47,494 bases of DNA from assembly GCF_036446775.1 (NCBI RefSeq), contig NZ_JAZFTO010000315.1:1-47494 (forward strand), written 5' to 3'. This document shows positions 2,134 through 42,680 of the stretch, piece after piece. Below the pieces are notes generated by a model, which made no database searches, was not told the DNA's origin, and saw nothing but the letters and a program-made list of their open reading frames with translations. Origin of the DNA: Candidatus Desulfatibia sp. GTDB taxonomy: Bacteria > Desulfobacterota > Desulfobacteria > Desulfobacterales > UBA11574. The position numbers were made by a program, and so were the translations under genes. How positions within the stretch are numbered: the first letter of the stretch is position 1; the number at the start of each line of letters is the position of its first letter.

Positions 2134-2339
2134 GATGAATTCGTAAAAAATCGAATTCATCCGATATTTGGTGTTTTCAGCCGTCGTAGCTACTTGGGCG
2201 AAGTCTGCTAGTACTTAGTGTTTTGCGTCGAATATATACTGATATACCAGTTCGTTAAATAGCCAAATACTAAACACCGTCAGACTTGGCCCAAGCAGCT
2301 GCCGACTTCGCCAAAGTAGCTTTAGCTACGACGGCTGAA
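2134..2339. repeat. Structured intergenic element: 10-bp-stem AATT hairpin followed by a long imperfect inverted repeat
   Basis: Hairpin gatgaattcg-taaaaaat-cgaattcatc (2134-2161). The inverted repeat has a perfect 17-nt core, ttcagccgtcgtagcta (2176-2192) against tagctacgacggctgaa (2323-2339), and imperfect pairing continues inward. The central loop holds ctgatataccag (2239-2250). Confidence 0.6.
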
Positions 2340-2457
2340 TTACTTACAACGGCTGAAAATACAAAATACTCTCAAAAAAAGTGGCGTTTTGCAAAGGCAT
2401 CTGACGGGATCTACGCGAGACCTTTGACAATCTGCGGGGCATTGCAAGTTAAAAAGA

Positions 2458-16538: not shown

Positions 16539-16588
16539 GAAATTAGATTTTCGTTATTTATAAATTGAAAATAAAAAGGAGAATCATT

Positions 16589-17785
16589 ATGCCGGGTTTT
16601 GAAGTATTTGGTGACGAGGAGCGTAAAGAAGTCCGGGACGTTCTGGACTCCGGTGTCCTGTTCCGCTATGGTTTTGACCAGGCCCGTCAAGGTCACTGGA
16701 AGGCCAAAGCATTTGAACTCGAGCTGGCCAAACGTATCGGAGCCGAGCATTGCCACCTGTGTTCCAGCGGCACGGCAGCTCTCAGCATCGCGCTGGCGGC
16801 CTGCGGAGTTGGTGCCGGCGATGAAGTCATTGTGCCGCCCTTTACTTTTATAGCAACCATCGAAGCCGTCCTGAATGCCGGCGGGGTCCCTGTTTTTGCT
16901 GAAATAGACGAAACATTGTGCCTTGATCCTAAAAGCGTCAAAACCGTGATAACACCTCAGACTAAGGCCGTGATTCCCGTACATATGTGCGGGTCCATGG
17001 CACGGATCGATGAAATTAGTACTATTTGTAAGCAAAACGACCTTATTTTGATCGAGGATGCCTGCCAGTCGCTGGGCGCCACTTTTGAAGGCCGGGCGGC
17101 CGGTACGTTTGGTCATATGGGTTGTTTTTCATTTGACCCTGTTAAAACCATTACCTGTGGTGAAGGTGGCGCTGTTGTAACCAATGATAAAAAACTTTAT
17201 ATTGCTGCGGATGCTTACGCCGACCACGGCCATGACCATATCGGCAGCGACCGGGGCCTTGAGGGTCATCCTGTTTTGGGCGTAAACTTTCGTATCAGCG
17301 AACTGAATGCCGCCGTAGGAGTCGCTCAACTAAATAAACTCGATTTCATTTTAGATAAACAGCGCAAGCATAAGAAGATCATCAAGGATGCCCTGGCACA
17401 ATTTCCGAAGATTACTTTCAGAAAGATCCCGGATGAAAAAGGGGACTCGGCTACATTTCTTTCATTTTTTCTGCCGGACGAATCAATAACCCGGAAAGCA
17501 GCCGCTGCCTTTGGTCAGGCCGGTATAGATGCATGCTTCTACTGGTATGACAACAACTGGCATTATATCCGGCAGTGGGACCACTTTAAAAAGCTGAAGT
17601 CTCTGGCAAAGCTGCCGCTTAAACTGTTGGAGTCTTACCCGGACTATGAAGCGCTCAAACTTTCCCAGTCCGACGATATTATGCGCCGGACAATCTCCAT
17701 GCTGATTAAACTCTCCTGGACGGACGAAGAGCTGAGGCAGCGAACCGAAAAAATTGTTGCTGTCATAAAAAAATCAGGCCTATAA
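16589..17785 (+). CDS. DegT/DnrJ/EryC1/StrS-family PLP sugar aminotransferase (KdnA-like candidate)
   Basis: Start moved to ATG 16589, which follows an AAAGGAGA RBS. MPGFEVFGDEERKEV..., SSGTAALSIAL, VIVPPFTFIATIEAV, FSFDPVKTITCGEGGAV (catalytic Lys context). Confidence 0.85.
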   Translation: MPGFEVFGDEERKEVRDVLDSGVLFRYGFDQARQGHWKAKAFELELAKRIGAEHCHLCSSGTAALSIALAACGVGAGDEVIVPPFTFIATIEAVLNAGGVPVFAEIDETLCLDPKSVKTVITPQTKAVIPVHMCGSMARIDEISTICKQNDLILIEDACQSLGATFEGRAAGTFGHMGCFSFDPVKTITCGEGGAVVTNDKKLYIAADAYADHGHDHIGSDRGLEGHPVLGVNFRISELNAAVGVAQLNKLDFILDKQRKHKKIIKDALAQFPKITFRKIPDEKGDSATFLSFFLPDESITRKAAAAFGQAGIDACFYWYDNNWHYIRQWDHFKKLKSLAKLPLKLLESYPDYEALKLSQSDDIMRRTISMLIKLSWTDEELRQRTEKIVAVIKKSGL

Positions 17786-28980: not shown

Positions 28981-30990
28981 TTAGAGAAGGTTTAAGTTCC
29001 AATTCCAAAGTCCGGGCCTTTTTTTCATTTTCACTCCCCTGGGTAAGGGTTCAATCAGATGTACAAACAGACTGTAACCTGCTTTCATTAATAAATCCTG
29101 CTGGGCCCTGATGTCCAGTTCCCAGTTGGGGAACATCCAATAGTCTGAACCATATTGTCGAACCCAGGCTTGCTCGCCCTTGGGGCTGGTAAACGGTTGC
29201 TTGGTTTTCAAATTTTCCACAAGTGTGCGCGATACGCATAAAGGCCAGTTGCCGGCTGTAACGATACCTACCGGCAGGGGGCTGTGCTTGGGCAGTAATA
29301 AATAATCTTCCCGTCCCAGTTCCGGACTGACGATGACCCCGTTAAATCCCAGAGATACCAGGCTGCTAACCGCGAGAGGATTGGTGATATTGCAAAACGG
29401 ACCGGCCCAGAGATTTAAACCTTTGGCCCCGGTAAAAAGCGCTATCTGCCAGGGGGAATTAAGGACAAAATTCCGTCCCCCCTTTTTAAGGACAAAATCG
29501 ACAACCCCCTTTATTTTGGTCTCAGCTTCAGGCCAGATTACAGGCGGCAACCACCACCAAAGTTTGGACACAAGGCCCCTTTGTATCCCTGCCGGGTTTT
29601 TGATCGGCAGCCAGGTCCCGGTTCGTCCCCGGAGCTTTTTGTTGCCAATCTTTCGGTATACCTTTAGTTCAAAAGCTAAGGATCGTTTTCTGGATCTTTG
29701 CGGCAGCCTGGCACAAAAATTTGAAGCATCTACCTGCGACTTTGGAATTTTGTCAAGCTCACCTTCAAGCGCCGTCAACATATTCTCAAGCGTTTTATCG
29801 CGTCTGTCCGTTAAAAATACCGGAGTCCCCGTGGCGGGACTTTTTTTTGAAACAATTTTTAAAAACAGACGCCCTTTTTTAGGAATGAACCTGCGGACCC
29901 TGCTTTTGCCGTGCCACGGCTCATCCTCATAACCGATGCGCAGGGTATCGCCGCATAAAAGTTCCTCTCTGGCAACAATAAACGGTTTTTCTCTCGTCCC
30001 TTTTACGTTTCCAACAAGCAACCCGGAGCCGGTTTGTACGTCGACTTTGACCGGACTTTGAGGTCTTTGCGGCAAAAAATTATAATGGGTTCCAGTACGC
30101 CCTAAAGCCCCGGCAAGGAGTTGCAGAGCCTCTTTTTTCATTTTAGGATCGCTGCCCTGATCCCTTAACATCCGGTAGGCCTGAACCGTATTAAAAACAT
30201 AATGGGGACCTTTTTTGCGGCCTTCAATCTTCCAGGCCCGCACCTGCGGAATGGACAAAAGAATTTTGACCAGCACATCTACGCTGAGATCCTGGCAGGA
30301 AAAAAATTTGGCGGTCTGCTTGTTGTGCGAATAAAGCCGGCGGCAGGGCTGAACGCATCTGCCCCTAAGGCCGCTCTTTCCGCCCAGATAGCTGCTCCAG
30401 TAGCACCTTCCGGAAATCCCGTAACACAGGGCCCCGTGGATAAATACTTCCAGATCCAACCCCTTTGGACAGGCCAGGGCCAGGGCCTTTATCTCGTCTA
30501 TGGAAAGCTCCCTGGGGATAACGATACGGTCCACATCAAGCTTTTTGCGCACAAGTTTCAAAGCTGCATTAAAGCTTACATTGGCAAGTGTCGATAAATG
30601 CAGCCGGCCGGCATAACCTGTTTGCCCGGCCAGCTGCACAAGGGACAGGTCCTGGATGATTATAGCTTCGGGCTTCACCCGCTTTTTCAATTGTTCCAAA
30701 AATCGACCGGCATGATCCAGATCATCGGGCTTTAACAGTGAGTTTAATGCCACATGGACCTTAATCCCTTTGTCACGTGCCATCTGCGCCAGGGATACCA
30801 GTTCCTCGAGTGAAAAGTTCTTAGCTTCCATGCGGGCCGAAAAGTGCTTCAGTCCCAAATATACGGCGTCGGCCCCGGCCGCCATGGCTGCCAGAAAGGA
30901 TGCTTTATTTCCAACCGGTGCCAGAATGGACGGTTTTAGGGATGGCTCTGTTGCTCGCTTCATACAGGTATTATATTGACTTTTATTCAT
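28981..30990 (-). CDS. U32-family peptidase-like protein (long form with C-terminal extension)
   Basis: 669 aa. ILAPVGNKASFLAAMAAGADAVYLG..FSAR, EVFIHGALCYGISGRCYWSSYLGGKSGLRGRCVQPCR (U32 Cys-rich signature). Confidence 0.85.
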   Translation of the reverse strand: MNKSQYNTCMKRATEPSLKPSILAPVGNKASFLAAMAAGADAVYLGLKHFSARMEAKNFSLEELVSLAQMARDKGIKVHVALNSLLKPDDLDHAGRFLEQLKKRVKPEAIIIQDLSLVQLAGQTGYAGRLHLSTLANVSFNAALKLVRKKLDVDRIVIPRELSIDEIKALALACPKGLDLEVFIHGALCYGISGRCYWSSYLGGKSGLRGRCVQPCRRLYSHNKQTAKFFSCQDLSVDVLVKILLSIPQVRAWKIEGRKKGPHYVFNTVQAYRMLRDQGSDPKMKKEALQLLAGALGRTGTHYNFLPQRPQSPVKVDVQTGSGLLVGNVKGTREKPFIVAREELLCGDTLRIGYEDEPWHGKSRVRRFIPKKGRLFLKIVSKKSPATGTPVFLTDRRDKTLENMLTALEGELDKIPKSQVDASNFCARLPQRSRKRSLAFELKVYRKIGNKKLRGRTGTWLPIKNPAGIQRGLVSKLWWWLPPVIWPEAETKIKGVVDFVLKKGGRNFVLNSPWQIALFTGAKGLNLWAGPFCNITNPLAVSSLVSLGFNGVIVSPELGREDYLLLPKHSPLPVGIVTAGNWPLCVSRTLVENLKTKQPFTSPKGEQAWVRQYGSDYWMFPNWELDIRAQQDLLMKAGYSLFVHLIEPLPRGVKMKKRPGLWNWNLNLL

Positions 30991-31073
30991 CGAATTTATA
31001 TTTATATATAATGTATTTACGAATATTGCAAAGATGGAATAAGTATCCGGCGCACATAATATGAGGGAACCAA

Positions 31074-31499
31074 ATGCCTGTAAAGAAAAGTCCGACAGAC
31101 CGAAGACGTTTCATCTCAATGGTGTCCGGGATGCTTTCCGGTCTCCTGCTGACAAAACCGGGAAGTGTGCGGGCCACAAAATCAGAAATTAAACAATTCC
31201 TGGCAAATATTGAGACTGACTTGCTGGTAAGATCCAAACCCTCAAAGCACCCTGCCGTCACTTGGGAACATTATGGAGACGGAATCCGTCTTTACAAAAA
31301 GAACCAGGTAAAAAATATTCCATTTTGCGCCACGAACCGGGTTGGCAAGACCATCTGGGAACACTGTAACGGCATAAATACTCCCTGGGAGATCTCCGCA
31401 TTTGTTCATCAGAAATATCTTGTCCCCCGCCAACAGGCCTATGCTGAATGCCTTGCTTTCATAGCTGCCCTAAAAACAAAAGAAGCGGTCCTACTGTAA
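31074..31499 (+). CDS. PqqD/RRE-like protein with an N-terminal twin-arginine (Tat) signal peptide
   Basis: 141 aa. SPTDRRRFISMVSGMLSGLLLTKPGSVRA-TK has the RR-x-F-I motif, a mild hydrophobic core and a V-R-A cleavage-type site. The C-terminal ~85 aa have the PqqD layout: beta strands VTWEHYGDGIRLY, then NRVGKTIWEHCNGINTPWEISAFVHQKY....AYAECLAFIAALKTKEAV. Confidence 0.7.
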   Translation: MPVKKSPTDRRRFISMVSGMLSGLLLTKPGSVRATKSEIKQFLANIETDLLVRSKPSKHPAVTWEHYGDGIRLYKKNQVKNIPFCATNRVGKTIWEHCNGINTPWEISAFVHQKYLVPRQQAYAECLAFIAALKTKEAVLL

Positions 31500-31503
31500 G
31501 ACC

Positions 31504-31788
31504 ATGAACGCTGCCCAACGATATATAAAAAATAACAACATCGTTTTCAGAGAAGAGGATGACGGTGCTTTTTTGTTTGATCCGGATTCAGGCAATTTGA
31601 AATACTTGAACAACTCCGCCAAAGAGACCTTTTTGATAATAGACGGTCAAAATGATTTAAACCAGATAGCCAATCGCCTGCTGGAACTATACCCTGATGA
31701 GGACGCCGAACAGGTCCGGAATGATGTGGAAAGTTTCCTGCTGGAACTTTTGTCGAATAGCTTTGTCTTCCATACGGGAAGCAATTAA
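31504..31788 (+). CDS. PqqD-family peptide chaperone (RiPP recognition element)
   Basis: 94 aa. IVFREEDDGAFLFDPDSGNLKYLNNSAKETFLIIDGQNDLNQIANRLLELYPDEDAEQVRNDVESFLLELLSNSFV is a textbook PqqD pattern. It starts 4 nt after the previous stop. Confidence 0.8.
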   Translation: MNAAQRYIKNNNIVFREEDDGAFLFDPDSGNLKYLNNSAKETFLIIDGQNDLNQIANRLLELYPDEDAEQVRNDVESFLLELLSNSFVFHTGSN

Positions 31789-31800
31789 CCCGAGAGACCT

Positions 31801-32889
31801 TTGAAAAAGGAATTTATGGCTAATCAGGAAATAAGCTACCCGCTGACAAGCCTTTATCTTTATCTCACCGATCGCTGTAATCTAAGATGCTCCCACTGTT
31901 GGATCTCGCCCGCATTTTCACAGCTTCAGCAAAACGGCATCCCCTTGGATCCTCTGAAAAAGACAATATCAGATGCCGGAGCATTGGGCCTTAACAGTGT
32001 CAAGCTGACCGGCGGAGAACCGCTTTTATACCGGCAACTGGATGAACTACTCACATTTTTGAAATCAAAAGAATTAACCATTTATATCGAAACAAACGGG
32101 ACCCTGATAGATCAAAAGATGATCAAATCTTTCCAGGCTGCCGGGGTGGAGCAGATTTCCGTCAGCCTGGATGCAGCCACGGAAGAAATTCACAATAAAA
32201 TTAGAGGAATTAAAGGCAGCTATGCTCGCACCTTGCAAGGCCTGCACGATCTTTCCCATAGCGGCTTGCAATTCCAAATTATCATGACTCTCCAGCGCAA
32301 AAACCTCAATGAGATACCGGGTATGGTGCAATTAAGCGAAAAGTTGGGGGCCTGTTCTTTAAAAATAAATCATCTGCTTCCTTGCGGGAGAGGAAAAGAG
32401 GCTTTTGATAAAAAAGAAAATCTGGAATTGGAAGAATTAATCCAACTTTACCGATTAGTACAAGAAAAATGGTTGCGACCGGGCACCATGGAAGTTGATT
32501 TCGATCTTCCAGTGGCGTTAAGGTCTATTGAAGATATCAAACGCAGAGGACTCAATGAATGCCGCATTCTGAATATTCTGGGGATTCTCGCCAACGGAGA
32601 CTTTTCCATCTGCGGCATCGGCCAGACGGTTGAAGAATTGCGCATGGGAAATCTCTCGCACGATTCGGTCGGCAGTGTCTGGCAAAACAATCCTATTCTA
32701 AACGAGCTGCGCCAATCCCTAACCAGCAAGCTTGAAGGAGCCTGCGGAGGCTGTATTTTTAAGTTTCAGTGCCTGGGAGGCTGCCGGGCTAATGCTTACT
32801 CTCTTACCAAGGATCTGCATGCACCGTATTTTTTGTGCCAACAATACTATGAATCCGGACTATTCCCATCATCAAGATATATCAAATGA
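31801..32889 (+). CDS. Radical SAM / SPASM-domain peptide-modifying enzyme (no. 1)
   Basis: CNLRCSHCW (CxxxCxxC). SPASM motifs C...GDFSIC (Gx4C) and CGGCIFKFQCLGGC (Cx2Cx5Cx3C) plus a trailing Cys (FLC). The start is either TTG 31801 or ATG 31816. Confidence 0.9.
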   Translation: MKKEFMANQEISYPLTSLYLYLTDRCNLRCSHCWISPAFSQLQQNGIPLDPLKKTISDAGALGLNSVKLTGGEPLLYRQLDELLTFLKSKELTIYIETNGTLIDQKMIKSFQAAGVEQISVSLDAATEEIHNKIRGIKGSYARTLQGLHDLSHSGLQFQIIMTLQRKNLNEIPGMVQLSEKLGACSLKINHLLPCGRGKEAFDKKENLELEELIQLYRLVQEKWLRPGTMEVDFDLPVALRSIEDIKRRGLNECRILNILGILANGDFSICGIGQTVEELRMGNLSHDSVGSVWQNNPILNELRQSLTSKLEGACGGCIFKFQCLGGCRANAYSLTKDLHAPYFLCQQYYESGLFPSSRYIK

Positions 32890-32892
32890 GAC

Positions 32893-33804
32893 ATGGAACT
32901 AACTATAAACCTGGCCGGAACAAAGATTGATATAATCTTTGCAGGCCGGTCAAATAATGCCATACCTCTGTGTAACCACTACTTCAGGAATTTTATTCAT
33001 CCTAACAGGGGAGAAAGCGCCGCAGTCAAAATAAGTGTCTTAGAAAAAGCAACCGGCAGGTTGCCGGTTCAGGAAACAAACGGGGAACCGATTTTTGAAC
33101 AGCTGCTGTCCACCCCGGATGTGGTCCAATGGCTTAGGGAAGTCCCGCCGTACAGAAAGGATTTCCTCATCGATGAAACCACCATCTGTTCATTTTGCAT
33201 GAACGGACTGCTGCTCTTTAGCCCTGAAACTGCGATTGGACATATCTACCTTTTAAAACCAGGACCCCGGGTGTTCCGACCACTCCACCGGCTGTTATGG
33301 ATTTATTTTGCCCAGGTTCTGGGAGAAAAAAGGGCCTGTTTTGTACATGCCGCGGCATTGACCAGAAAAGCAGGCGGCCACCTTTTTTTTGGAGACTCCG
33401 GGGCCGGTAAAAGTACCCTGGCCGGCGCCTGCGGGCGCGACACCGTAATATCGGATGACAGTCCTGTTTTCCGCAAGCGCAATGGCAAATATCACGTATT
33501 CCCTTCCCCTTATCATCAGATGGGCCGGCTTAAAATTCTTAATAAGGAAACTCCTGACATATGTGCTGAAGTGAAAGGGTTATATTTTCTGGTCAAAGAT
33601 GACAACCTCTCTATTAACAAAATCTCAAAGAAAAAAGCCGTCTCCATGATCATAAACCGCTATATTCTTTTTTTCCCCTATCTTTCACCCCGGGCCAAAA
33701 GGTTGCTATTTGACCTTTTTCTTGAAGCATGCCATAATTTACATACTAATTATCTTCATTATTTGCCAGGCCGGGACGTGTGGAGTGTTATTGCCGACGG
33801 CTAA
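32893..33804 (+). CDS. HPr-kinase-like P-loop protein (HprK-related kinase family)
   Basis: 303 aa. CFVHAAALTRKAGGHLFFGDSGAGKSTLAGACGRDTVISDDSPVF mirrors the HprK core (VH...G.GVL..G.SG.GKS....L...G..L.(A/S)DD). The ATG is 3 nt after the rSAM stop. Confidence 0.75.
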   Translation: MELTINLAGTKIDIIFAGRSNNAIPLCNHYFRNFIHPNRGESAAVKISVLEKATGRLPVQETNGEPIFEQLLSTPDVVQWLREVPPYRKDFLIDETTICSFCMNGLLLFSPETAIGHIYLLKPGPRVFRPLHRLLWIYFAQVLGEKRACFVHAAALTRKAGGHLFFGDSGAGKSTLAGACGRDTVISDDSPVFRKRNGKYHVFPSPYHQMGRLKILNKETPDICAEVKGLYFLVKDDNLSINKISKKKAVSMIINRYILFFPYLSPRAKRLLFDLFLEACHNLHTNYLHYLPGRDVWSVIADG

Positions 33805-33818
33805 AACTGGAGGATGAA

Positions 33819-34217
33819 ATGACAGGCTCAAAAGAAGATAAGCAAACCACCCGGATTCCATATGAACCTCCCCGGCTATTAGATCTGGGCGGAGGGGTTG
33901 CCTATGCTAAAAGAGGAAAAGGAGGAAAAGGAGGTTGCAAGCCTGGTGGTAGCCCGGCGGGCAGGAAATGCAAACCAGGCCAATCGGCTACGGGCAGCCA
34001 ATGCAAACCAGGAGGTACGGCGGGCAGCAAATGCCAATCAGGAGGTGCGGCAGCAGGCGGCGATTGTAGGCCGGGAGGTACGGCAGCAGGTGGGAACTGT
34101 AGGACTGGAACTACGGCGGCAGGTGGGAAATGTCAGCCTGGTGGAACCGCAGGTTCGAAATGCCAAAGTGGAAGTACGGCCGGTGGCAGGTGTCGAACTG
34201 GCGCCACTGTGGGATAA
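33819..34217 (+). CDS. Candidate RiPP precursor peptide, 132 aa: RRE-binding leader plus nine Cys-containing repeat modules
   Basis: GGAGGA (33809-33814), then ATG 33819. Sequence: MTGSKEDKQTTRIPYEPPRLLDLGGGVAYAKRGKGGKGG-CKPGGSPAGRK-CKPGQSATGSQ-CKPGGTAGSK-CQSGGAAAGGD-CRPGGTAAGGN-CRTGTTAAGGK-CQPGGTAGSK-CQSGSTAGGR-CRTGATVG. Leader residues 15-24 fit YxxPxLxxxG. The ORF-track start (GTG 33780) overlaps the upstream gene and is rejected. Confidence 0.65.
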   Translation: MTGSKEDKQTTRIPYEPPRLLDLGGGVAYAKRGKGGKGGCKPGGSPAGRKCKPGQSATGSQCKPGGTAGSKCQSGGAAAGGDCRPGGTAAGGNCRTGTTAAGGKCQPGGTAGSKCQSGSTAGGRCRTGATVG

Positions 34218-34248
34218 TAATAGATAAGATGAAACCTTTGCAAAGGTC

Positions 34249-35415
34249 TCAGAATATAAACGCCCGGTACAAATCGTTACTTACTAAGCTGATAATCTCC
34301 GCAGCCCTTCTGAAGTAACCTGATCTTTTGCCGGACCATGATTTATCTTGGATTATCTGAGCCATTACCTCGTCTTTGGGAAAAACAGTCTCTTTGATAA
34401 ATTTGAGTTTATTACCTGTTCCCTCTAAATTGCAAAGCCACAAGAGATAACAAAGTTCTTCCGAAGAAAAACCCCGGATCTTCAAACGCAGGATATGTTT
34501 TTCCAGGATGCTCAGCCTGTTGATTCCCAGCTCCTGCTTGACCTGCAAGGGTACTTGCAGGTCAAAAATTCTCTCCACCAAAATCAGGGCATAAAGTACA
34601 ATTCTCTCCTGTTGCCAGAATCGGGCTCGTTCTACGACTTCTCCCCATCCGCCGGGGATGCCGGCTAATTCCAGCAGGCATTCATGCAGATCCACCAGCC
34701 AGATCAGCCGGGAATAGCTGTGCTTCAGGGCATGAGCGGCCAAAGCTACAACATTGTCAAAAGGGTCCGGAAGTAAGAGACTATCCTGTTGCTCAAAGAA
34801 GGGTACGGCCCTTTCCCACATGGGGGTAAGGTCGGCCGGAAAGATATACCGCCTATTATGAATGCGGTCCAGATTCAAGATATGGATGTGAATGTCAACT
34901 ATAAAATCACCCTTGTAAAGGATATCCGGATAGGCGGGATTGGTCGCATAGTAACCGGCTTGCCCTAACAATTGTTTAAAACCTTCTTTATGGTCCGGTT
35001 TGACCATAAAGTCCGCATCACCCAGAGGCCTGAGCCCTATGTCGCCGTACATTCTGGTAAGGGCTAAGCCCTGCAGGGCCATAACCGTAAATCCGGCCTG
35101 TTCCAGCTTGTCCGCAAGTGCCCTGGCGTTGGCAATAACTGCCAGGGTATATTCTTTGGTCTGATTATATCTGTTTTCGAGACGTTTTAAGGCCGTTTTC
35201 GAAACAGCATCACAGAGGTCCAGATCTCTCAGGTGGTAATAAAAAAATCCGGCAACCCCGTCCAGTTCCGCCAGCGCCGCTAAATTGTCCCAGGGAACAT
35301 CCTGCTTAACAAAGTGCCGCACATAATCCTTCTCAGCCCGCTTAAGATGCCGCCTCGATACGCAGCGAATAAATTTAACAATCTCCCACCAGCCTACCAT
35401 CATATATCCTCTCAA
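34249..35415 (-). CDS. Uncharacterised nucleotidyltransferase family protein (NTP_transf_5-like)
   Basis: 388 aa. GLRPLGDADFMVKPDH (G..D.D nucleotidyltransferase-type motif) and AAHALKHSYSRLIWLVDL helical domain. This family commonly accompanies HprK-like and PqqD genes. Confidence 0.65.
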   Translation of the reverse strand: MRGYMMVGWWEIVKFIRCVSRRHLKRAEKDYVRHFVKQDVPWDNLAALAELDGVAGFFYYHLRDLDLCDAVSKTALKRLENRYNQTKEYTLAVIANARALADKLEQAGFTVMALQGLALTRMYGDIGLRPLGDADFMVKPDHKEGFKQLLGQAGYYATNPAYPDILYKGDFIVDIHIHILNLDRIHNRRYIFPADLTPMWERAVPFFEQQDSLLLPDPFDNVVALAAHALKHSYSRLIWLVDLHECLLELAGIPGGWGEVVERARFWQQERIVLYALILVERIFDLQVPLQVKQELGINRLSILEKHILRLKIRGFSSEELCYLLWLCNLEGTGNKLKFIKETVFPKDEVMAQIIQDKSWSGKRSGYFRRAAEIISLVSNDLYRAFIF

Positions 35416-35433: not shown

Positions 35434-36528
35434 TTAGCCGGGAAGTCGTCCTCCTGCTTTTAAAAACCGTTTTAGACAGGCATCGGGACTTGGATGATTT
35501 TCATTTCCCAGAATCAAATATGCCAGGGCCGGACAGTTCCCCGTACAATAGTCGATATATTCGCAGCCTTTGCAAAATTCAAAATCGCTCAAAGGAATAT
35601 TGTAGCGTCCTCTCAATCGCTTAAGCTCCGGATGTTTTTGCCAAACCGTTTTGAGATCATCCCGATTGATGCGCCCCAATTCAATATGGCTCATCTGAAT
35701 GCACGGCACCAGTACTCCGTCAGCCCGCACGGCCATCGTATTCATCGGTCCGCCGCAAGCTGAAAGATATCCTCCCTCAAAGTCATCTTTTTCTCCGGTC
35801 CGCCGGGCCTCTTCCATCATATTCCAACTACCGGCCTCGGCTAAGGGGCCTGCGGTGGCGCTGATTCTTCCGTTGTATTTTTCACTTAAGTTTAAAAGCT
35901 CCTCCATCGCCATACTACGCTCTTCAACCGTAAGTTGGACCTGTTCGGCATTCCGGCGGCAAAGTCCCATATATGACGCCGCATTGGTAGAAAAATCATC
36001 AAGTCCGATATCTTCCAGCAGCAGACGGGCAATTCTATCCAACTCTCTGACATTTTTTCTGTGAATGGTAACCCTTACGGATACAGAGACACCGTGTCTT
36101 TGCAAGCACTTGATGCCCTCGATTGCTTTGAAGAAATTCCCCCGGCCCCGAAAAGCGTCATGGGTCAGCGGTATGGAGCCGTCGATGGAGACTTGAACGC
36201 CGTCGCAGCGCCCGGTCGAAGCTAAAAAAGCGGCCGTTTCATCCGCAATCAACGTGCCGTTACTTAATATATCGAACCGCATCCGGTTGCTGACAATCCC
36301 TGCTACAATTTGCCTCAAATCCTCCCGATAAAAAGGCTCTCCGCCCTGAAGAGTCACATGCAGGACCGCGCATCGATTCAACTCCTCGAAAAACTTGAGC
36401 CATTCTTCAGCGGGCAGGTCCCGGCCCACATCGCCCGCTCCGGAAAAATGGCTGCAATACTTACATCGCAGATTACACCTGTTTGTTATAGCCAGGTCCA
36501 GTGCTCTTGGCGTCTTCATTATCTTCAT
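35434..36528 (-). CDS. Radical SAM / SPASM-domain peptide-modifying enzyme (no. 2)
   Basis: 364 aa. CNLRCKYC (CxxxCxxC), GGEP motif. SPASM motifs CGGPMNTMAVRADGVLVPC (Gx4C) and CKGCEYIDYCTGNC (Cx2Cx5Cx3C) plus a distal Cys (PDAC). Confidence 0.9.
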   Translation of the reverse strand: MKIMKTPRALDLAITNRCNLRCKYCSHFSGAGDVGRDLPAEEWLKFFEELNRCAVLHVTLQGGEPFYREDLRQIVAGIVSNRMRFDILSNGTLIADETAAFLASTGRCDGVQVSIDGSIPLTHDAFRGRGNFFKAIEGIKCLQRHGVSVSVRVTIHRKNVRELDRIARLLLEDIGLDDFSTNAASYMGLCRRNAEQVQLTVEERSMAMEELLNLSEKYNGRISATAGPLAEAGSWNMMEEARRTGEKDDFEGGYLSACGGPMNTMAVRADGVLVPCIQMSHIELGRINRDDLKTVWQKHPELKRLRGRYNIPLSDFEFCKGCEYIDYCTGNCPALAYLILGNENHPSPDACLKRFLKAGGRLPG

Positions 36529-36540
36529 AAAATATTCGGG

Positions 36541-37929
36541 TTAGAATGATGAAAAAGATACTCGCTTGGCCGGTTCAGGACTTGATACTTCCGCCTTTTC
36601 CAGTTGGGGCAGGACCGTAATAATGCCGACCATAAACCAGAAAGGCTCCATAATGCGGACAATTATAAATGTGTTGGCCCCGAGGGCGTGAAACAGAAGA
36701 CCGGTGAGACCGGCCAGAAAACCGATGGTCAGTCCTTGAAGATAAGGAGTTTTAAGTTCCTTTAAATTAATAATTGCTAATTTAAAGATAGAATATAAAA
36801 GATAGATAAATGCCGTTAATCCGATAACACCCGTCTCCACCAGCACCCTCGGAAACTGCGCATCTAAGAACCTGTATCCGGTAACGCCGTATCCGAACAC
36901 AGGATGTTTGGTCCAGTCACGCAATGCATCTTGCCAGCTCCTTAACCTGGCCGAGGTGGAAGTGTCCAACCTCACATCACCTACAGTAACTTGCTGGCCA
37001 GGATGTTCGCGTTGCGTAAAAGTAAAACTGATTCTCTCTTTAACCGTCGAGGGAAGCAAAAGGGGGCTTAATGCTAAAAAAAGAAGCATTAGGCCGACAA
37101 TTATAACCCTCTTTTCAGACATCAGACCTAAAACCAGGCACGCGGGGATGAACGCCAGATAAGAAGCTCTGGACTGCGTAAAAAGCAAAGGGGGTATAAT
37201 GGCAACTATCAGAACGGCAAGCAACTGCTTTGACAACAATTTTTCAACCTTTGAAAACAATCCTGCGGTAATTGCCCCTATAAATACAAGGTATCCTCCC
37301 ATAGTGTTGGGTTCGCCGACTTCACCTTCAAACGGCGCAGAGACTCTGCCTCCGCCAGGAATCTGCAGCATCCCGATGATCGATACCACAAAACCTGTAA
37401 GCAACAAACATATCAAAAATCGATTTGCCTGCTTCAGGTTTGCAACATGATTGACTATCATAAAAAAGACGATCATGTATTCAAAATATTTTACAACAAA
37501 GAAAAAACCGGTTGTGGGAGATACTCTGCCGGCCATGATGCCGAATCCGGTTGATATAATGCATGCCAACATATAAAAAAGAATGGGCTTATTCAATGGC
37601 GTTTTCAAAACCAGCCCCAGCTCCTTGTGAACCGCGGTTTTGGCAAACCAACTGAAACCGATAACAACCAGCAGAAAGTCTTCCAGCCGCACAGTTACAC
37701 CTCTTCCGAGAGAGGCCCCCTCGGTCGTACCTACCATGATTTCAGGCGACAGCAGCATGGAAAAAATTAAGATATACAAGCCCCACTCTATGTTGATAAA
37801 GGCCACAGCAAAGATTATCAAAGCTATTAGGCCCTGAAATAGTAGGGGGGAATACATATATTGTGATGAAAGAAAGCCCAAAAAAAGGGCAACAGCCAGA
37901 AATGATATGGTCAATAAAAAGGATCGCAC
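36541..37929 (-). CDS. O-antigen ligase / Wzy_C-family polytopic membrane protein
   Basis: About 10-12 predicted TM helices. Wzy_C-type segment LLFTQSRASYLAF and periplasmic loop ...ARLRSWQDALRDWTKHPVFGYGVTGY. The ORF track extends to 38046 and overlaps the upstream gene by 115 nt. I prefer GTG 37929, 2 nt after the upstream stop; ATG 37857 is an alternative. Confidence 0.75.
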   Translation of the reverse strand: MRSFLLTISFLAVALFLGFLSSQYMYSPLLFQGLIALIIFAVAFINIEWGLYILIFSMLLSPEIMVGTTEGASLGRGVTVRLEDFLLVVIGFSWFAKTAVHKELGLVLKTPLNKPILFYMLACIISTGFGIMAGRVSPTTGFFFVVKYFEYMIVFFMIVNHVANLKQANRFLICLLLTGFVVSIIGMLQIPGGGRVSAPFEGEVGEPNTMGGYLVFIGAITAGLFSKVEKLLSKQLLAVLIVAIIPPLLFTQSRASYLAFIPACLVLGLMSEKRVIIVGLMLLFLALSPLLLPSTVKERISFTFTQREHPGQQVTVGDVRLDTSTSARLRSWQDALRDWTKHPVFGYGVTGYRFLDAQFPRVLVETGVIGLTAFIYLLYSIFKLAIINLKELKTPYLQGLTIGFLAGLTGLLFHALGANTFIIVRIMEPFWFMVGIITVLPQLEKAEVSSPEPAKRVSFSSF

Positions 37930-37931
37930 AA

Positions 37932-40220
37932 TTAAAATATATCTTGCCAGAATATTCCTAACACCAGCAAAGCCAGCGTTATGATGAGTACTACTATGGT
38001 CAAGGGTTTTATTTGAAACGCAGGCGGCAAATGTTCTTGAAACCATCTTGTTATGGAACTGCTTTGTTTATCTTCTATATCTTCTTCCGACCCATAATAA
38101 TACTGAGTATGATACTTGAAATAATCAGGACCGGCCTCCGCCTTCACGTTGTTTAAGACGACACCCCATACATTGGCATTGATATTGTCCAGGGTCGTTT
38201 TAGCGCGTTTCAATACCCCCCGGCCAATTTTTCCCACTGTGTAGACCATGACAACACCGTCTACATGCGGTCCGATTTCGGTGGCATCAACTACAGGCAA
38301 AATCGGGGGGGAATCTATAATGATGATATCATAGCTTTGATAAGCCTTCTGTAAAAGTTCAACAAACCGTTTTGAACGTAAGATTTCAGCCGGGTTGGGC
38401 GGTTTTGTTCCGGCAGTGATGATATTAAGGTTGTCCAGCCCCGGGGTTTTCAGAATTTCCTCTAATTCAAAATCTCCCAGCATGATATCTGTAATGGTAT
38501 TTATGATATCTTTATACTGATAGTTTCCCAGAACGCAATCCGTCAAACCGGGTCCTTTTTCCAATCCAAAAATCTTATGGATTACAGGTTTGCGCAAATC
38601 CGCCTCCAACAGCAGTACTCTGCTGCCCGCTTGAGCCATACTGAGCGCCAGGTTGACCGCGTTAAAGGTTTTTCCTTCTCGCACAAAAGAGCTGGTAATC
38701 AGAAACGATTTTCCTTGTTTGTCCAGACTCATAAACTCAATGTTCGATCTGAGAGTGCGGAAGGCTTCCGCGGATAAGGACTTGGGATCATAGTGAGTAA
38801 CCAATTCCCGTTCTCTTCCTGTTTCTAAAACCTGTTGACTATCACGGCTCTTGCCCGTCTCCACTTTCCCCATAAAAGGTATAACTCCCAGGACCGGAAC
38901 CTGTAGTAAATTCTCCACATCCTCTATGGTCCCCATGGAAGTATCAAACACCTCAGCGCCAAAAGCAAAAACAAACCCTACGATCAAACCCATAATAATG
39001 CCCGTAAAGATAATCATCATTTTAGAAGAGACATTGAAAGGAGCCGCAGGCACCAAAGCCGGTTTAACAATGACAACCTCCTCCACTTTGCCAGACTCCT
39101 TAATCAGGGTCTCCTGGTGTTTGGTTTTCAATTGGGAATATAAAGATTCCTGTAGTTGCACCTCTCTTTGCATTCTGACCAGCTTCAGAGCCTTTTCCGG
39201 AAGGCTCCGGCTCTCTTTCCTCAAACGATTCAGCTTTGTTAAAAGATCAGCTTCGCGTTTTGCTAAAATACTTGAAAAGGCCTCAAGCTCTTTTCTTATC
39301 TCAAGAATTATGGCTTGAATCTGATCATTTACCCCGACTACCTGCGGATGCTCTTTAGTAAAGTCAATCAGCAGGGTTTCCCTCTTTAAAAGCAAATCGC
39401 TCAGTTTGACCCTCAATGCATGTATAGGAGAATCTTTGTCCGGGGCAATCAAGGTTCTATTAAATTTTTCCGGAGACAAATCAGTCTTTTCTGCGATCAG
39501 TTTTAATAGCGATACAACTTCATTTTTTTGTTTTTTTGCCTTCTCATGCTCTAATTCAACATCGTACAACCGATTTAACGTATTGCTGGTTTGAGCATCC
39601 ATGGATATCAAGGCATAGCCTTCCTTAAAGGCCCGGAGTTCATCCTCTGCCTGTTGTAGGAGATTTGAGGTCAACTGCAGCTGCTTTTCGATAAAGGCCT
39701 TGGTTTCGAATGTCTTCCTGTTTTTCTCCTGGATATTGTAATTCCTATATGCTCTGGTAACAGCGTTTGCTACAAGTGCCGCTTCCTGGGCATCTCTCGA
39801 TATTACTCTGATATTAATGATATTGGTACCAGGCTCCTGTTCCGCTTTTATTAAAGCCTTCAGACGCTGGACCTTGGCCAAAAGGGATTTGGAATTGCGA
39901 ATCTTTTCAGCGGAAATATTCTTAGGAATCCAATCTAACTCCTTTGCTGTTTGTGACAGTACCGGGAAACTGGTAATAATATAAGCATGCGTAATCAGAT
40001 TTTCCGATTCCTCAAAAAATCCACCCATAAAAAAGTCCGCCATGGTTTTGGTGCGTTCGATTTTAATGGCGGCACTGGCTTCATATAAAGGAACGGGCTC
40101 ATTCAATTTTGCAAAGCCATAGCTGAAGACCCCGGCCAAAAAAGTCAGCAGTACAATAATGGTCTTTCTCTTTCTGATGATCCGCCAGTAATCTCTCAGA
40201 TCGACGTCATATTGAGCCAT
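37932..40220 (-). CDS. Polysaccharide co-polymerase / tyrosine autokinase (second Wzc-like protein) with an extra C-terminal TM segment
   Basis: 762 aa. DLRDYWRIIRKRKTII Wzz-type N-terminus, coiled-coil periplasmic domain. Kinase motifs: Walker A SSFVREGKT, A' LLEADLRKP, B IIIDSPP. Tyr cluster YFKYHTQYYYGSEED, then LTIVVLIITLALLVLGIFW. Confidence 0.85.
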   Translation of the reverse strand: MAQYDVDLRDYWRIIRKRKTIIVLLTFLAGVFSYGFAKLNEPVPLYEASAAIKIERTKTMADFFMGGFFEESENLITHAYIITSFPVLSQTAKELDWIPKNISAEKIRNSKSLLAKVQRLKALIKAEQEPGTNIINIRVISRDAQEAALVANAVTRAYRNYNIQEKNRKTFETKAFIEKQLQLTSNLLQQAEDELRAFKEGYALISMDAQTSNTLNRLYDVELEHEKAKKQKNEVVSLLKLIAEKTDLSPEKFNRTLIAPDKDSPIHALRVKLSDLLLKRETLLIDFTKEHPQVVGVNDQIQAIILEIRKELEAFSSILAKREADLLTKLNRLRKESRSLPEKALKLVRMQREVQLQESLYSQLKTKHQETLIKESGKVEEVVIVKPALVPAAPFNVSSKMMIIFTGIIMGLIVGFVFAFGAEVFDTSMGTIEDVENLLQVPVLGVIPFMGKVETGKSRDSQQVLETGRERELVTHYDPKSLSAEAFRTLRSNIEFMSLDKQGKSFLITSSFVREGKTFNAVNLALSMAQAGSRVLLLEADLRKPVIHKIFGLEKGPGLTDCVLGNYQYKDIINTITDIMLGDFELEEILKTPGLDNLNIITAGTKPPNPAEILRSKRFVELLQKAYQSYDIIIIDSPPILPVVDATEIGPHVDGVVMVYTVGKIGRGVLKRAKTTLDNINANVWGVVLNNVKAEAGPDYFKYHTQYYYGSEEDIEDKQSSSITRWFQEHLPPAFQIKPLTIVVLIITLALLVLGIFWQDIF

Positions 40221-40234
40221 TGCCGAAAACCTTC

Positions 40235-40503
40235 CTAATTGAGCTAAAACTCAATTAGGTGTTATCCGTTATTTGTTATTAGTTATTGGTTTTAAGTGAA
40301 AGATAAACAGAATTATACCCTAATCGAGCCAAAATTCGATTAGGCGTCTGTGGTCAGCTGTCCGTAGTCAGTGGTTTTACAGGTTCTTAGGGCCTCTTTT
40401 TGTGTTTCACCTGTAGTTGAAATATAATCTCGCTTCTTAAAGCTTAGCAACGGACGACGGACAAAGGACAACGGACACCCAATTGAGCGTTATCGCTCAA
40501 TTG
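40235..40503. repeat. Composite structured intergenic element: three AATT-stem hairpins interleaved with heptamer arrays
   Basis: Hairpins: ctaattgag-ctaaaa-ctcaattag (40235-40258), ctaatcga-gccaaaat-tcgattag (40320-40343), caattgagcg-ttat-cgctcaattg (40480-40503). Arrays: gttatcc/gttattt/gttatta/gttattg (40261-40288), gtctgtg/gtcagct/gtccgta/gtcagtg (40346-40373) and the complementary-type acggacg/acggaca/aaggaca/acggaca (40450-40477). Confidence 0.6.
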
Positions 40504-40508
40504 AAATA

Positions 40509-42680
40509 CTATTTTGTCAATATATCAGCAGCACTGTCAAAGCCTTTAATGATGGTAGTAGGCATAAGGATAAGTTCCATAAAGGGCTTAATTCGCTTAA
40601 CAAACAGGTTTGCATCACCGATAAAACTTCGCGGTACAAACACCAGATCTCCGTTTGTCAGGGCAACATTCTGGGTCTGGTCGCCTTCCTCCATAAGTTT
40701 TTTAAGATCAGCAGAAATGACCTCGGGTCTGGTGGGGTCCCCCCTGATAATCTTGGTACTGTCCTCATGCGCGAATACGGTAACGCCCCCGGCCTGTGAA
40801 ACGACATCCAGCAGGCGCATCTCTGAACCGCTAAAAGCATATACGCCCGGCTTGCCCACTTCACCAAAGATATACACCCGATTGTCCTCTTTGGTAATAA
40901 GGGGAATATAAATTACATCACCGCTATCCAGCACCACATCCTGGCCGGTTTCACCCCGTAAAATAGCATTGAACAGGTTCAATTTTAATACCTGCCCTTT
41001 CTTGCGGCGCAAACCTACTTCAGCCAGATTGGCGTCTTGATGCAAGCTAACGTTCTGGGAAAATATTTCCACGATTGTAGTCCGGCCGGTCAGATAGTTT
41101 TTACCTCCGCCGGTTCTGCCAGCCCAGGCCGCTCCCGGCCCTAAAACTGTTACGAATTTGCTTTTATATTCCTTGACTATAACGTCCACCCGGGGATTTC
41201 TTATATACTTGACAAGCCTGCCGGTTATAATATCATCCACCTGCGAGGCGGTAAATCCGTTGACATAAAGATTGTCCACCATGTTAAACGAAATTTTGCC
41301 CGCAGGCCTAACCGTTATTAGTTCTCTGGTCGCAGTAGGTCCTTTCCACAAAGTTATTTCAATAACATCGCCGGGCCCGATTTTATACTCCGGAACCCCG
41401 GATACAGTTGTAAAGACACTGTTTTCTTCAAGTTCGGCAGAAATCGAAGGAAGTTCCGGAGCGGCAACTTTCTGTGCTTGGCGGACTCTCGATGAAACGA
41501 CACCCTTTTCTTTTCCCAGCCAGATTTTGATGCCCTCTCCAAAGCCGGCAGCACAGATATCATCGCGCCCGTCTTTATCTAAATCGGCGATCTCGATTCC
41601 ATAGAAGATACCTTTGGATGGGAACCGCCCTTTGATGGGCGTCCAGGAATCTGATCCTGCGTTTTTCCAGGCCTTGATCCCCTTAGAATTTACGGAACCG
41701 GCCAGAAGATCCATCAGACCGTCTCCATCCAGGTCAACAGCAAGGGCTTGCCAGAAGCTGTCGTTTTCTTCCAGACTCGATGTGCCGATGAAGTCTCCGC
41801 GTCCATCTCCTATAAAAATCTGAACACCTTTTCTGTAAGAGCCGGCTAATAAATCCAGCTTGCCGTCAGCGTTAACGTCTCCAACGCTCAGACCATAAAA
41901 ACTGCCTTTACGTACCGGTAAAGTCGACGACCAGCCCCCGGTACCGTCTCCGAGCCAGACCTTCAAAGCGCCATAGCTGCCCCAGCCGGCTCCCGCCAGG
42001 TCCAAAAACCCGTCTTGATCAAAATCAGCCAACGCTACATCCATGAAAATCCCTGTAACCGTAGGACCCGACTCCATAAGCCAGGCGCCTTTTCCATCTC
42101 CCAGCCAGACCTGAATACCGCCTTGGGTATCCGAGGTCGCATTGGCGGCAATGATATCCATATGTCCATCCCCATTAACATCAGCCGTCTCCACGCCCTC
42201 GTAGTTATTTATTTCGACAGGGTTGATACCTCTGAGCCACCTGCGCTCGGACTGATTCAACCACACCATAATTCCCGAGGCTTCTCTTTGAACGGACAGC
42301 ACGATATCCTTAAGTCCGTCTTCATCGAAATCCGCCACGGCAACGGATCTAACATCCCCTTTGAACGGCAGGTATTGAGGTGCAGACATATTACCGGAGC
42401 CGTCCCCATACCAGATAGCTACAGTCCCGGGGAATGTACTCCCTCCGACGATATCCGGATTACCATCGTTGTCCAGATCAGATACGGCCACCGCCCGGTA
42501 TTTTCCTGATGTGGCCAGGTCGCCGGCTTTGGCCCATTGAGCCGGTTGTTCTTGGCCTATATCTTGAGCACACCCAATAGTTAATATAAGCCCCAGCAAT
42601 CCCACATGAAACAGCAGAATTTTATAAAGGGACCTTCCAGTTTTATTAAAGTTCCTTTTCCACATTTTATAGATATACAA
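40509..42680 (-). CDS. Lipoprotein fusing a seven-repeat FG-GAP/VCBS beta-propeller to a Wza-type polysaccharide export module (Poly_export + SLBB)
   Basis: 723 aa. Signal plus Cys (LGLILTIGCAQD). Seven D-x-(D/N)-x-D-G-x-x-D repeats (DLDNDGNPD, DFDEDGLKD, DVNGDGHMD, DFDQDGFLD, DVNADGKLD, DLDGDGLMD, DLDKDGRDD). Then YKIGPGDVIEITLW (Poly_export signature) and two SLBB-like units (FVTVLG..., VYIFGEVGKPGVY...). Confidence 0.8.
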   Translation of the reverse strand: MYIYKMWKRNFNKTGRSLYKILLFHVGLLGLILTIGCAQDIGQEQPAQWAKAGDLATSGKYRAVAVSDLDNDGNPDIVGGSTFPGTVAIWYGDGSGNMSAPQYLPFKGDVRSVAVADFDEDGLKDIVLSVQREASGIMVWLNQSERRWLRGINPVEINNYEGVETADVNGDGHMDIIAANATSDTQGGIQVWLGDGKGAWLMESGPTVTGIFMDVALADFDQDGFLDLAGAGWGSYGALKVWLGDGTGGWSSTLPVRKGSFYGLSVGDVNADGKLDLLAGSYRKGVQIFIGDGRGDFIGTSSLEENDSFWQALAVDLDGDGLMDLLAGSVNSKGIKAWKNAGSDSWTPIKGRFPSKGIFYGIEIADLDKDGRDDICAAGFGEGIKIWLGKEKGVVSSRVRQAQKVAAPELPSISAELEENSVFTTVSGVPEYKIGPGDVIEITLWKGPTATRELITVRPAGKISFNMVDNLYVNGFTASQVDDIITGRLVKYIRNPRVDVIVKEYKSKFVTVLGPGAAWAGRTGGGKNYLTGRTTIVEIFSQNVSLHQDANLAEVGLRRKKGQVLKLNLFNAILRGETGQDVVLDSGDVIYIPLITKEDNRVYIFGEVGKPGVYAFSGSEMRLLDVVSQAGGVTVFAHEDSTKIIRGDPTRPEVISADLKKLMEEGDQTQNVALTNGDLVFVPRSFIGDANLFVKRIKPFMELILMPTTIIKGFDSAADILTK

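Follow-up and report, generated by a model that had tools for sequence, protein, structure and literature searches.

Among described systems, those closest to the gene reported here, which encodes a PqqD-like protein with a predicted twin-arginine translocation (Tat) signal peptide (hereafter Tat-PqqD) in a 47,494-nucleotide stretch of DNA from Candidatus Desulfatibia sp. (contig NZ_JAZFTO010000315.1 of assembly GCF_036446775.1; the whole stretch is termed the window), are the lasso peptide B1 proteins, the SynChlorMet (SCM) cassette, the HPr-rel-A system, the Tat hitchhiker pairs and the bufferins. The B1 proteins TbiB1 (5V1U/5V1V) and TfuB1 (6JX3) are RiPP recognition elements (RREs; RiPP, a peptide synthesized on ribosomes and modified after translation) with a winged helix of three strands and three helices. 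Lasso B1 RREs bind the leader motif Y-x-x-P-x-L-x-x-x-G, and the RREs known to us are cytoplasmic. The SCM cassette is described by the models TIGR04248-TIGR04251; its TIGRFAM description reportedly states that the precursor had not been identified. The HPr-rel-A system (TIGR04352, TIGR04353, PF14907) is a trio of an HprK-like P-loop protein, a PqqD protein and an NTP_transf_5 protein. Tat hitchhiker pairs are exemplified by the hydrogenase small and large subunits HybO-HybC and by DmsA-DmsB. The export of heterodimers that carry a Tat signal on one partner only is established, the complex being assembled in the cytoplasm before export (PMC10924467). Bufferins are RiPPs modified by MNIO (multinuclear non-heme iron-dependent oxidative) enzymes; they carry a Sec signal on the precursor and receive their final cut from signal peptidase, which their authors call the first such case in a native producer (PMC11626156).

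The window shares features with each of these systems and departs from each of them. Like the lasso B1 proteins, Tat-PqqD has the three-stranded, three-helix winged fold, and the lasso leader motif recurs in the cognate precursors; unlike them, it adds a twin-arginine signal and a conserved helix (residues 35-55). A lasso system as such was ruled out: neither an Asn-synthetase-like cyclase (C) nor a B2 transglutaminase-like protease occurs among the cassette genes of the window and 10 related loci, and the lasso models score far below their cut-offs. As in the SCM cassette, an ScmE that passes its model is accompanied by ScmF-, ScmD- and ScmC-like genes, but here the cassette is split into two convergent units, NTP_transf_5 and Tat-PqqD are added, and neither the ABC exporter nor the S24/S26-like peptidase seen in collinear sister cassettes occurs. 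The HPr-rel-A trio also recurs (the window ScmD scores 28.8 bits against TIGR04353 and ScmC matches TIGR04352 and TIGR04355 weakly, all below cut-off), although the present cassette adds two radical SAM/SPASM enzymes and Tat-PqqD to it. If the hitchhiker pairs are taken as the model, Tat-PqqD would carry and the precursor would be carried; known passengers are folded, cofactor-bearing subunits that stay bound, whereas in this case a modified peptide would be gripped through its leader and set free afterwards. As with the bufferins, a cytoplasmically modified RiPP would reach the periplasm by a general pathway without a dedicated transporter, but in that case the signal resides on the precursor and is of the Sec type, whereas here the precursor has no signal and a Tat-type signal is found on a separate RRE protein. 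Our literature searches returned nothing that links Tat to RREs, PqqD or RiPP export, and nothing on "SynChlorMet" (ScmC, ScmD, ScmE and ScmF gave unrelated acronyms only). We regard the combination of an RRE and a Tat signal of its own as a genuine variant, conserved and not described before.

The predicted protein begins MPVKKSPTDRRRFISMVSGMLSGLLLTKPGSVRATKSEIK (translation of the open reading frame (ORF) at 31074-31499), identical to the sequence quoted in the initial annotation of this gene, and the same ATG was picked by independent gene callers on 4 contigs that carry a 97%-identical orthologue. Its N-terminus has the anatomy of a Tat signal throughout. The n-region carries a net charge of +4 and leads into RRRFI (residues 10-14), in the context T-D-R-R-R-F-I-S, which matches the TatP motif RR.[FGAVML][LITMVF] and agrees with the S/T-R-R-x-F-L-K consensus expected near the N-terminus. 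The h-region that follows (F13-T27) consists of 15 uncharged residues with a mean Kyte-Doolittle hydropathy of 1.77. The highest 19-residue window of the N-terminus reaches 1.12, compared with the usual transmembrane threshold of 1.6, so that the h-region falls short of a transmembrane helix both in length and in hydrophobicity. The c-region is basic (K28 and R33) and runs into V-R-A|T-K, a cleavage motif of the A-x-A type. The RR-x-F-I motif, weak h-region and VRA site on which the initial annotation had relied are thus borne out by feature statistics. Such an N-terminus is unique to Tat-PqqD among the 60 mechanically called ORFs of at least 100 codons in the window. A lipoprotein signal was ruled out, as there is no Cys near the cleavage site. 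All evidence considered, the conservation described below included, the N-terminus is very probably a functional Tat signal.

The remainder of the protein is a member of the PqqD/RRE superfamily, as the initial annotation had proposed. Pfam PqqD (PF05402) matches residues 87-137 with an E-value of 2e-7 (31.6 bits, gathering cut-off 23.4), and 12 of 13 close homologues also match this family. The AlphaFold2 model, built on 39 sequences, has a mean predicted local distance difference test score (pLDDT) of 85, with values of 53-65 in the N-terminal 40 residues, where a low-pLDDT helix spans residues 8-25. A winged helix is evident in strands 62-67, 70-75 and 82-87 and helices 89-96, 104-115 and 119-135, all with pLDDT above 90. 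The best Foldseek matches in the Protein Data Bank (PDB) are TbiB1 (5v1u/5v1v) and TfuB1 (6jx3), with TM-scores on the target of 0.77-0.80 (TbiB1 0.77-0.79), followed by PqqD (5sxy, 0.67); the TbiB1 and TfuB1 structures are complexes with leader peptides. A search of PDB sequences with the family profile identified the same two proteins (TfuB1 7.5e-7, TbiB1 1.1e-6). At the level of curated models the clade is not covered: no Pfam or NCBIfam model describes it, and the lasso PqqD models of NCBIfam give about 17 bits (17.2 for NF033536), below their thresholds of 70-80. One family member carries the NCBI name "PqqD family protein".

The signal is conserved well beyond the immediate orthologues. 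Ten full-length close homologues (48-97% identity) retain RRxFI[SC] and the h-region together with a site of the form [AVL]-x-A|[TQ]-K, as do two orthologues from metagenome-assembled genomes of Desulfobacterales (52-53% identity). A profile search over 1.84 billion cluster representatives yielded 209 relatives at E<=1e-3, of which 55 reach E<=1e-10; a second protein search with a diverse-family profile added three more proteins only. The TatP motif occurs near the N-terminus in 45 of the 66 matches of at least 120 residues, as opposed to 3 of 84 short, ordinary PqqD proteins. Several of the long matches without the motif begin within the h-region, so that their starts may have been mis-called. 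When 39 diverse full-length members (25-48% identity to the window protein) are aligned, no columns other than R10, R11, P56 and N88, four in all, are invariant. The twin arginines are present in 39 of 39 relatives, and in all full-length close homologues, so that the RR region stood up to the comparison of orthologues that had been suggested for it. F13 is found in 32 of the 39, and L, I or M occupies position 14 in 35. In every member the RR lies at position 5-15, an uncharged stretch of 15-25 residues follows (median 18 residues, median hydropathy 1.38), and a basic residue occurs no more than 8 residues after it; only 4 of the 39 reach a hydropathy of 1.6 over 19 residues. Ala occupies position -1 in 21 of 38 members, with small or aliphatic residues at -3. 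Below about 50% identity, the h-region changes in sequence and RR-x-F remains constant, as would be expected of a real targeting signal.

Two further elements of the N-terminal part are conserved. The helix at residues 35-55 is marked by E47 (30/39), D/E49 (33/39) and L51 (29/39); ordinary PqqD matches align only from about profile position 55 onward and thus do not possess it. Within the h-region, the small-xxx-small pattern S18-G19-x-x-S22-G23 is seen, with G19 in 27 and G23 in 28 of the 39 sequences.

A variant of the SynChlorMet radical-SAM cassette contains Tat-PqqD as a constant member. In the window, ScmE exceeds the equivalog cut-off of its model, and the other Scm proteins score below theirs (ScmF 329.9 of 400, ScmD 33.4 of 100 and ScmC 17.1 of 125 bits); since only ScmE passes, the cluster is regarded as a divergent SCM sub-type. 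The cassette comprises two convergent units, five genes on the + strand and NTP_transf_5 and ScmE on the - strand. Tat-PqqD had been described as the first gene of the cluster, which holds for the + strand unit; the two genes on the other strand belong to the cluster too, and the divergent U32 gene may do so. The second PqqD protein, encoded just downstream, has no signal, as originally noted. The core gene order recurs in ten loci (L008, L009, L012-L016 and L096-L098) in which Tat-PqqD is 26-33% identical and the flanking genes are unrelated, and in most of them Tat-PqqD and the next PqqD gene are 2-4 nt apart or overlap. Custom hidden Markov models (HMMs) resolve three PqqD clades in these cassettes: Tat-PqqD, the ScmD clade beside ScmF, and a third that is located beside ScmE or fused to it. 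Cassettes that possess the third PqqD, free or ScmE-fused, still hold Tat-PqqD (L008, L009, L012, L013, L096), so that Tat-PqqD is not merely the RRE of one enzyme.

A metagenome scan anchored on ScmE revealed related cassettes, and all loci were scored with HMMs built from the cassette proteins. The comparison covers 11 Tat-PqqD cassettes, each with at least 5 kb of sequence, and 8 sister cassettes without Tat-PqqD, of a collinear architecture (PqqD-ScmE-ScmF-(PqqD)-precursor-ScmC); five of the sisters are informative, and the contigs of the other three end right after ScmF. An ABC exporter and/or an S24/S26-like peptidase is present in all 5 informative sister loci and in none of the 11 Tat-PqqD cassettes. 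The difference is significant (Fisher p = 2e-4, or p = 0.005 with the three incomplete loci taken as negatives), on 16 loci that are phylogenetically non-independent and that include several short contigs, beyond whose ends an exporter could lie. Tat-PqqD and the exporter/peptidase module are thus mutually exclusive in this set. Among the sisters, L022 encodes an ABC exporter of about 600 residues with ABC_membrane and ABC_tran domains, L027 and L028 an S24/S26-type peptidase, and L029 and L030 both a peptidase and an ABC exporter; Pfam confirms these assignments except for the L030 peptidase, which is recognized by the custom S26-like HMM only. The cleanest comparison is that of L009 with L030, which have in common a clearly homologous precursor, a PRMT (protein arginine methyltransferase)-like enzyme and NTP_transf_5. 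In L030, the S26-like gene lies between the precursor and methyltransferase genes and the ABC gene beside NTP_transf_5, whereas L009 has neither of the two and carries Tat-PqqD beside NTP_transf_5. In the 47-kb window itself, the custom HMMs for the sister exporter and peptidase match nothing, in accord with the earlier observation that the cassette has no transporter, and Pfam scans of the larger ORFs revealed only polysaccharide-export genes as export functions. Taken together, the pattern suggests that Tat-PqqD substitutes for the exporter and peptidase module of the sister cassettes.

Two observations on the sister loci may be added. The S24/S26-type peptidase is a soluble protein. The second, signal-less PqqD of L029 may be the orthologue of Tat-PqqD: its best score is with the Tat-PqqD HMM, though at only 17.6 bits, as compared with 10.5 and 13.5 bits for the other two HMMs.

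The Wzy_C gene was examined in the same loci. Of the 11 Tat-PqqD cassettes, 4 have it as a neighbour, in two gene orders: upstream of ScmE (window, L012, L096) and directly upstream of Tat-PqqD in the same orientation (L098). It is next to none of the 8 sister cassettes, a difference with a Fisher p of 0.10. Present in 4 of 11 cassettes, the link is recurrent rather than universal, and Wzy_C as an obligatory partner is ruled out by its absence from the other seven. Wzy_C-domain proteins include O-oligosaccharyltransferases, and the window protein gives a weak match (E 7.5e-5) to the O-linking oligosaccharyltransferase TfpM. More speculatively, the association points to a periplasmic follow-up step in some lineages. 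Presentation of the peptide to the Wzy_C-like enzyme, originally put forward as an alternative to co-export, has gained this recurrent link without proving general, and it is compatible with co-export.

The precursor family is a candidate substrate, and each cassette encodes one such small protein. In the window, the leader ..IPYEPPRLLDLGGGVAYA is followed by nine Cys at a spacing of 10-11 residues in a core rich in Gly, Ala, Thr, Ser and Lys (31% Gly, grand average of hydropathy -0.75, net charge +15). Across the precursors (window, L008, L012-L016, L096, L097) the leader consensus reads [IL]PYEPPxLxxLGxGxAxA, and the core repeat places a Cys every 10-11 residues or so (C-x-P/S/T-G-x-S/T-A-x-G-x-x) in a Gly/Ala/Ser/Thr/Pro context. 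None of the precursors matches a Pfam or NCBIfam family, and none has a hydrophobic N-terminus; the earlier statement that the precursor has no signal peptide is thereby upheld. The leader segment Y-E-P-P-R-L-L-D-L-G fits the lasso motif Y-x-x-P-x-L-x-x-x-G, which agrees with the lasso B1 proteins being the structural neighbours of Tat-PqqD. An A-x-A closes the leader in 9 of 10 Tat-PqqD cassettes; none of 4 sister cassettes shows it, their leaders reading YE[KT]P... and ending in MGA, MGV, LGI or AKG.

These findings can be accommodated in a model in which Tat-PqqD, while still in the cytoplasm, binds the leader of the modified precursor and brings this peptide across the membrane by Tat, as a hitchhiker. 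We regard this as a good possibility, somewhat short of probable. Radical SAM enzymes work in the cytoplasm, and ScmE and ScmF would modify the precursor there, guided by the signal-less PqqD (ScmD); the HprK-like ScmC and NTP_transf_5 may modify it further. Tat-PqqD would next bind the leader of the product, and its own signal would bring the folded complex to TatBC, the signal-less peptide crossing the membrane as a hitchhiker. Tat is said, on the strength of work by Richter et al. in 2007, to tolerate hydrophilic, Gly-rich cargo. In the periplasm, signal peptidase I would cut the Tat signal after A34, and the same or another peptidase may cut the leader at the conserved A-x-A, whose position at the leader end suggests that a signal peptidase or similar enzyme frees the core. 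In some lineages, the Wzy_C-like membrane enzyme might then act on the Ser/Thr/Ala/Pro-rich core. The co-export idea of the initial annotation has thus been strengthened by the exporter/peptidase swap (5/5 as opposed to 0/11), while the binding and export steps themselves are still inferred. In its fullest form, the proposal is that a signal-bearing RRE acts as a dedicated Tat carrier for a RiPP: it would hitchhike the signal-less precursor, have its own signal and the leader A-x-A trimmed by signal peptidase, replace the ABC/S24/S26 module and supply envelope enzymes, such as a Wzy_C-type ligase or O-oligosaccharyltransferase, with a Cys-repeat peptide rich in Gly, Ser and Thr. For this complete chain our support is more tentative.

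A number of observations weigh against this model. The curated Tat-signal HMMs TIGR01409 and PF10518, run on the whole protein, on the 40-residue N-termini of seven orthologues and on 39 family members, do not match Tat-PqqD of the window; one close orthologue scores 12.7 bits (cut-off 16.7), and in the family TIGR01409 (TAT_signal_seq) is reported at E<=10 for just 4 of 39 members, with a best E-value of 0.0032. Among close orthologues, residues 10-55 are more conserved than the RRE domain, which is unusual for a cleaved signal, and the N-terminal segment may do more than target the protein. No tat genes were detected in the 47-kb window by Pfam scans of the larger ORFs, so that the Tat system of the host is assumed. 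In the window cluster, two radical SAM enzymes are accompanied by only two PqqD proteins, and the ScmE-associated third clade is missing, so that Tat-PqqD could here simply be the RRE of ScmE; ScmD, rather than Tat-PqqD, may also be the leader binder. Signal peptidase I normally needs a membrane-embedded h-region beside its cleavage site, and a cut by this enzyme in the precursor leader, which has no h-region, is accordingly disfavoured. The limited independence and length of the loci behind the module swap count on the same side.

Other explanations of the Tat-PqqD N-terminus were weighed against the same evidence. Export by Tat could concern the protein alone, which would act in the periplasm as a receptor for the leader or peptide, as an adaptor for Wzy_C or as a binder of some other ligand, the peptide staying inside or leaving by an unlinked route. 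The conserved Tat signal is in keeping with this, as are the cassettes adjoined by Wzy_C (in one case directly upstream of Tat-PqqD in the same orientation), and the conserved helix 35-55, which ordinary PqqDs do not have, could serve as a new surface for interactions. We nevertheless consider solitary export unlikely: it leaves unexplained why the ABC/S26 module is missing exactly where Tat-PqqD is present, the majority of the cassettes (7/11) have no Wzy_C, and a periplasmic RRE would have no ligand unless the leader-bearing peptide, whose precursor has no signal, arrives as well. The N-terminus could also be an uncleaved anchor, inserted by Tat or Sec, that holds the RRE on the outer side of the membrane or docks it to a membrane partner. 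The predicted helix at residues 8-25 and the unusual conservation, among close orthologues, of the h-region with its small-xxx-small pattern and of the residues after it would suit such an anchor. An uncharged stretch with a median of 18 residues, and of 15 in the window, that reaches transmembrane hydropathy in only 4 of 39 members would not, nor would the residues around the predicted cleavage site (21 of 38 members with Ala at -1, and small or aliphatic residues at -3), or an h-region that drifts around a fixed RR as in a signal peptide; this explanation appears decidedly improbable.

Much the same standing, namely that of a quite unlikely reading, is given to an ordinary cytoplasmic RRE that serves ScmE, its Tat-like N-terminus being a Sec signal, a cytoplasmic interaction helix or a segment without function. 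The pairing of two PqqDs with two radical SAM enzymes in the window, where the PqqD3 clade is missing, speaks for it, as does the failure of the curated Tat HMMs to detect the window protein. However, an RR that is invariant in 39 diverse members is explained neither by a functionless segment nor by a Sec signal, and a Sec signal is made less likely by the basic residues of the c-region and of position +2. Moreover, Tat-PqqD is retained in cassettes whose ScmE already has a PqqD partner, free or fused, and an exported partner would be a poor dedicated RRE for enzymes that are cytoplasmic. Finally, the start could have been mis-called, with translation from M16 or later and the RR region untranslated: two metagenomic homologues are annotated as proteins of 126 residues starting MVSGML, and several representatives begin inside the h-region. 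We reject this reading as highly improbable, given that relatives as distant as 25% identity still conserve the residues upstream of M16, the RR being invariant, that GAGGG lies 6 nt before the ATG at 31074, and that the long form is called in most loci. Set beside these readings, co-export of the leader-bound peptide by Tat-PqqD is the one we prefer.

The positions of the features are given in Table 1.

Table 1. Features of the Tat-PqqD protein, its cassette and the adjoining genes in the window. Positions are nucleotides of the window; residue numbers refer to Tat-PqqD.
Feature	Positions	Strand	Evidence
Tat-PqqD gene, RRE/PqqD fold with signal, 141 aa	31074..31499	+	ORF; Pfam PqqD E 2e-7; 55 family representatives at E<=1e-10
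Shine-Dalgarno-like GAGGG, 6 nt 5' of the Tat-PqqD ATG	31063..31067	+	Read from sequence
Predicted Tat signal peptide, residues 1-34: n-region, RRRFI, h-region F13-T27, c-region KPGSVRA; putative cleavage after A34	31074..31175	+	Feature statistics; column conservation; low-pLDDT helix 8-25; cleavage inferred
Twin-arginine core R10-R11-R12-F13-I14	31101..31115	+	Column conservation, 39 relatives
Extra conserved helix before the RRE domain, residues 35-55, motif IK.FL..IE.D.L..S.P	31176..31238	+	AlphaFold2 helix 32-53; column conservation
RRE/PqqD winged-helix domain, residues 56-141	31239..31496	+	AlphaFold2; Foldseek; family profile
Signal-less PqqD, ScmD clade, 4 nt after the Tat-PqqD stop	31504..31788	+	Pfam PqqD 2.8e-11; TIGR04248 ScmD 3.9e-8, below cut-off; distinct clade by custom HMMs
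Radical SAM/SPASM enzyme, ScmF-like	31816..32889	+	TIGR04251 329.9 bits (cut-off 400); Radical_SAM and SPASM; start as on orthologous contigs
ScmC/HprK-related P-loop protein	32893..33804	+	Weak TIGR04249 and TIGR04355 matches; orthologues carry Pfam PF27840 ScmC
Precursor peptide, 132 aa	33819..34217	+	Translation; orthologous precursors
NTP_transf_5 nucleotidyltransferase-like protein, convergent with precursor	34249..35415	-	PF14907 E 1.3e-43; in 8/11 Tat-PqqD cassettes
Radical SAM/SPASM enzyme ScmE	35434..36528	-	TIGR04250 616.6 bits (cut-off 400)
Wzy_C (O-antigen-ligase-like) polytopic membrane protein, 12 nt upstream of ScmE, same strand	36541..38046	-	PF04932 4.5e-11; weak TIGR03097 and TfpM matches
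U32-family protein (UbiU/TrhP-like), 669 aa, divergent from Tat-PqqD	28981..30990	-	PF01136 6.5e-52

The surroundings of the cassette comprise genes of several kinds. Upstream of ScmE and on the same strand lie Wzy_C and, further upstream, a GNVR/Wzz tyrosine-kinase-type gene, as part of an exopolysaccharide locus. The true start of Wzy_C is probably about 40 codons downstream, because the called ORF overlaps the 3' end of the GNVR/Wzz kinase gene (37932-40220) by 115 nt and the orthologues are 456-460 residues long. The window contains two separate polysaccharide export sets (837-4791, + strand, and 37932-42680, - strand), each with Poly_export/SLBB and Wzz-GNVR-AAA_31 kinase proteins; in the second, a 723-residue Poly_export protein is fused to FG-GAP repeats.

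The divergent U32 gene may belong to the cluster. A U32 gene neighbours the cassette in L004, L012, L097 and L030, and in L097 a PqqD gene overlaps the start codon of the U32 gene (1982-4239, - strand), which suggests that the U32 protein may act on the peptide. A small, conserved additional protein of the CxxCxxCC type (PF03692, YkgJ-like) occurs in several cassettes of both types (L013 at 15846-16592, L015 at about 3000-3850 on the + strand, L016 at 1585-2109 on the - strand and L028 at 3780-4340) and is absent from the window. A promoter-like site at 33710-33738 on the + strand (TTGACC-17-CATAAT with an upstream TG, 10 of 12 matches) falls inside the terminal part of ScmC, some 80 nt ahead of the start of the precursor gene, and may be a chance occurrence; in a promoter and terminator scan of 30850-34400, the numbers of sites were at shuffle expectation.

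RREs are commonly seen as adaptors that act in the cytoplasm. The export of RiPPs has so far been credited to dedicated transporters or, only recently and in the bufferins, to a Sec signal on the precursor (PMC11626156). If the proposed role of Tat-PqqD is correct, it would represent a third route of RiPP export, in which a chaperone doubles as the carrier, exactly where the cluster has no exporter and no leader peptidase. RiPP clusters without a transporter would then be read differently in genome mining, and the carrier would offer synthetic biology a compact tool for bringing cytoplasmically modified peptides to the periplasm. The SynChlorMet cassette, for its part, would gain a candidate precursor family and a likely destination for its product, the cell envelope.

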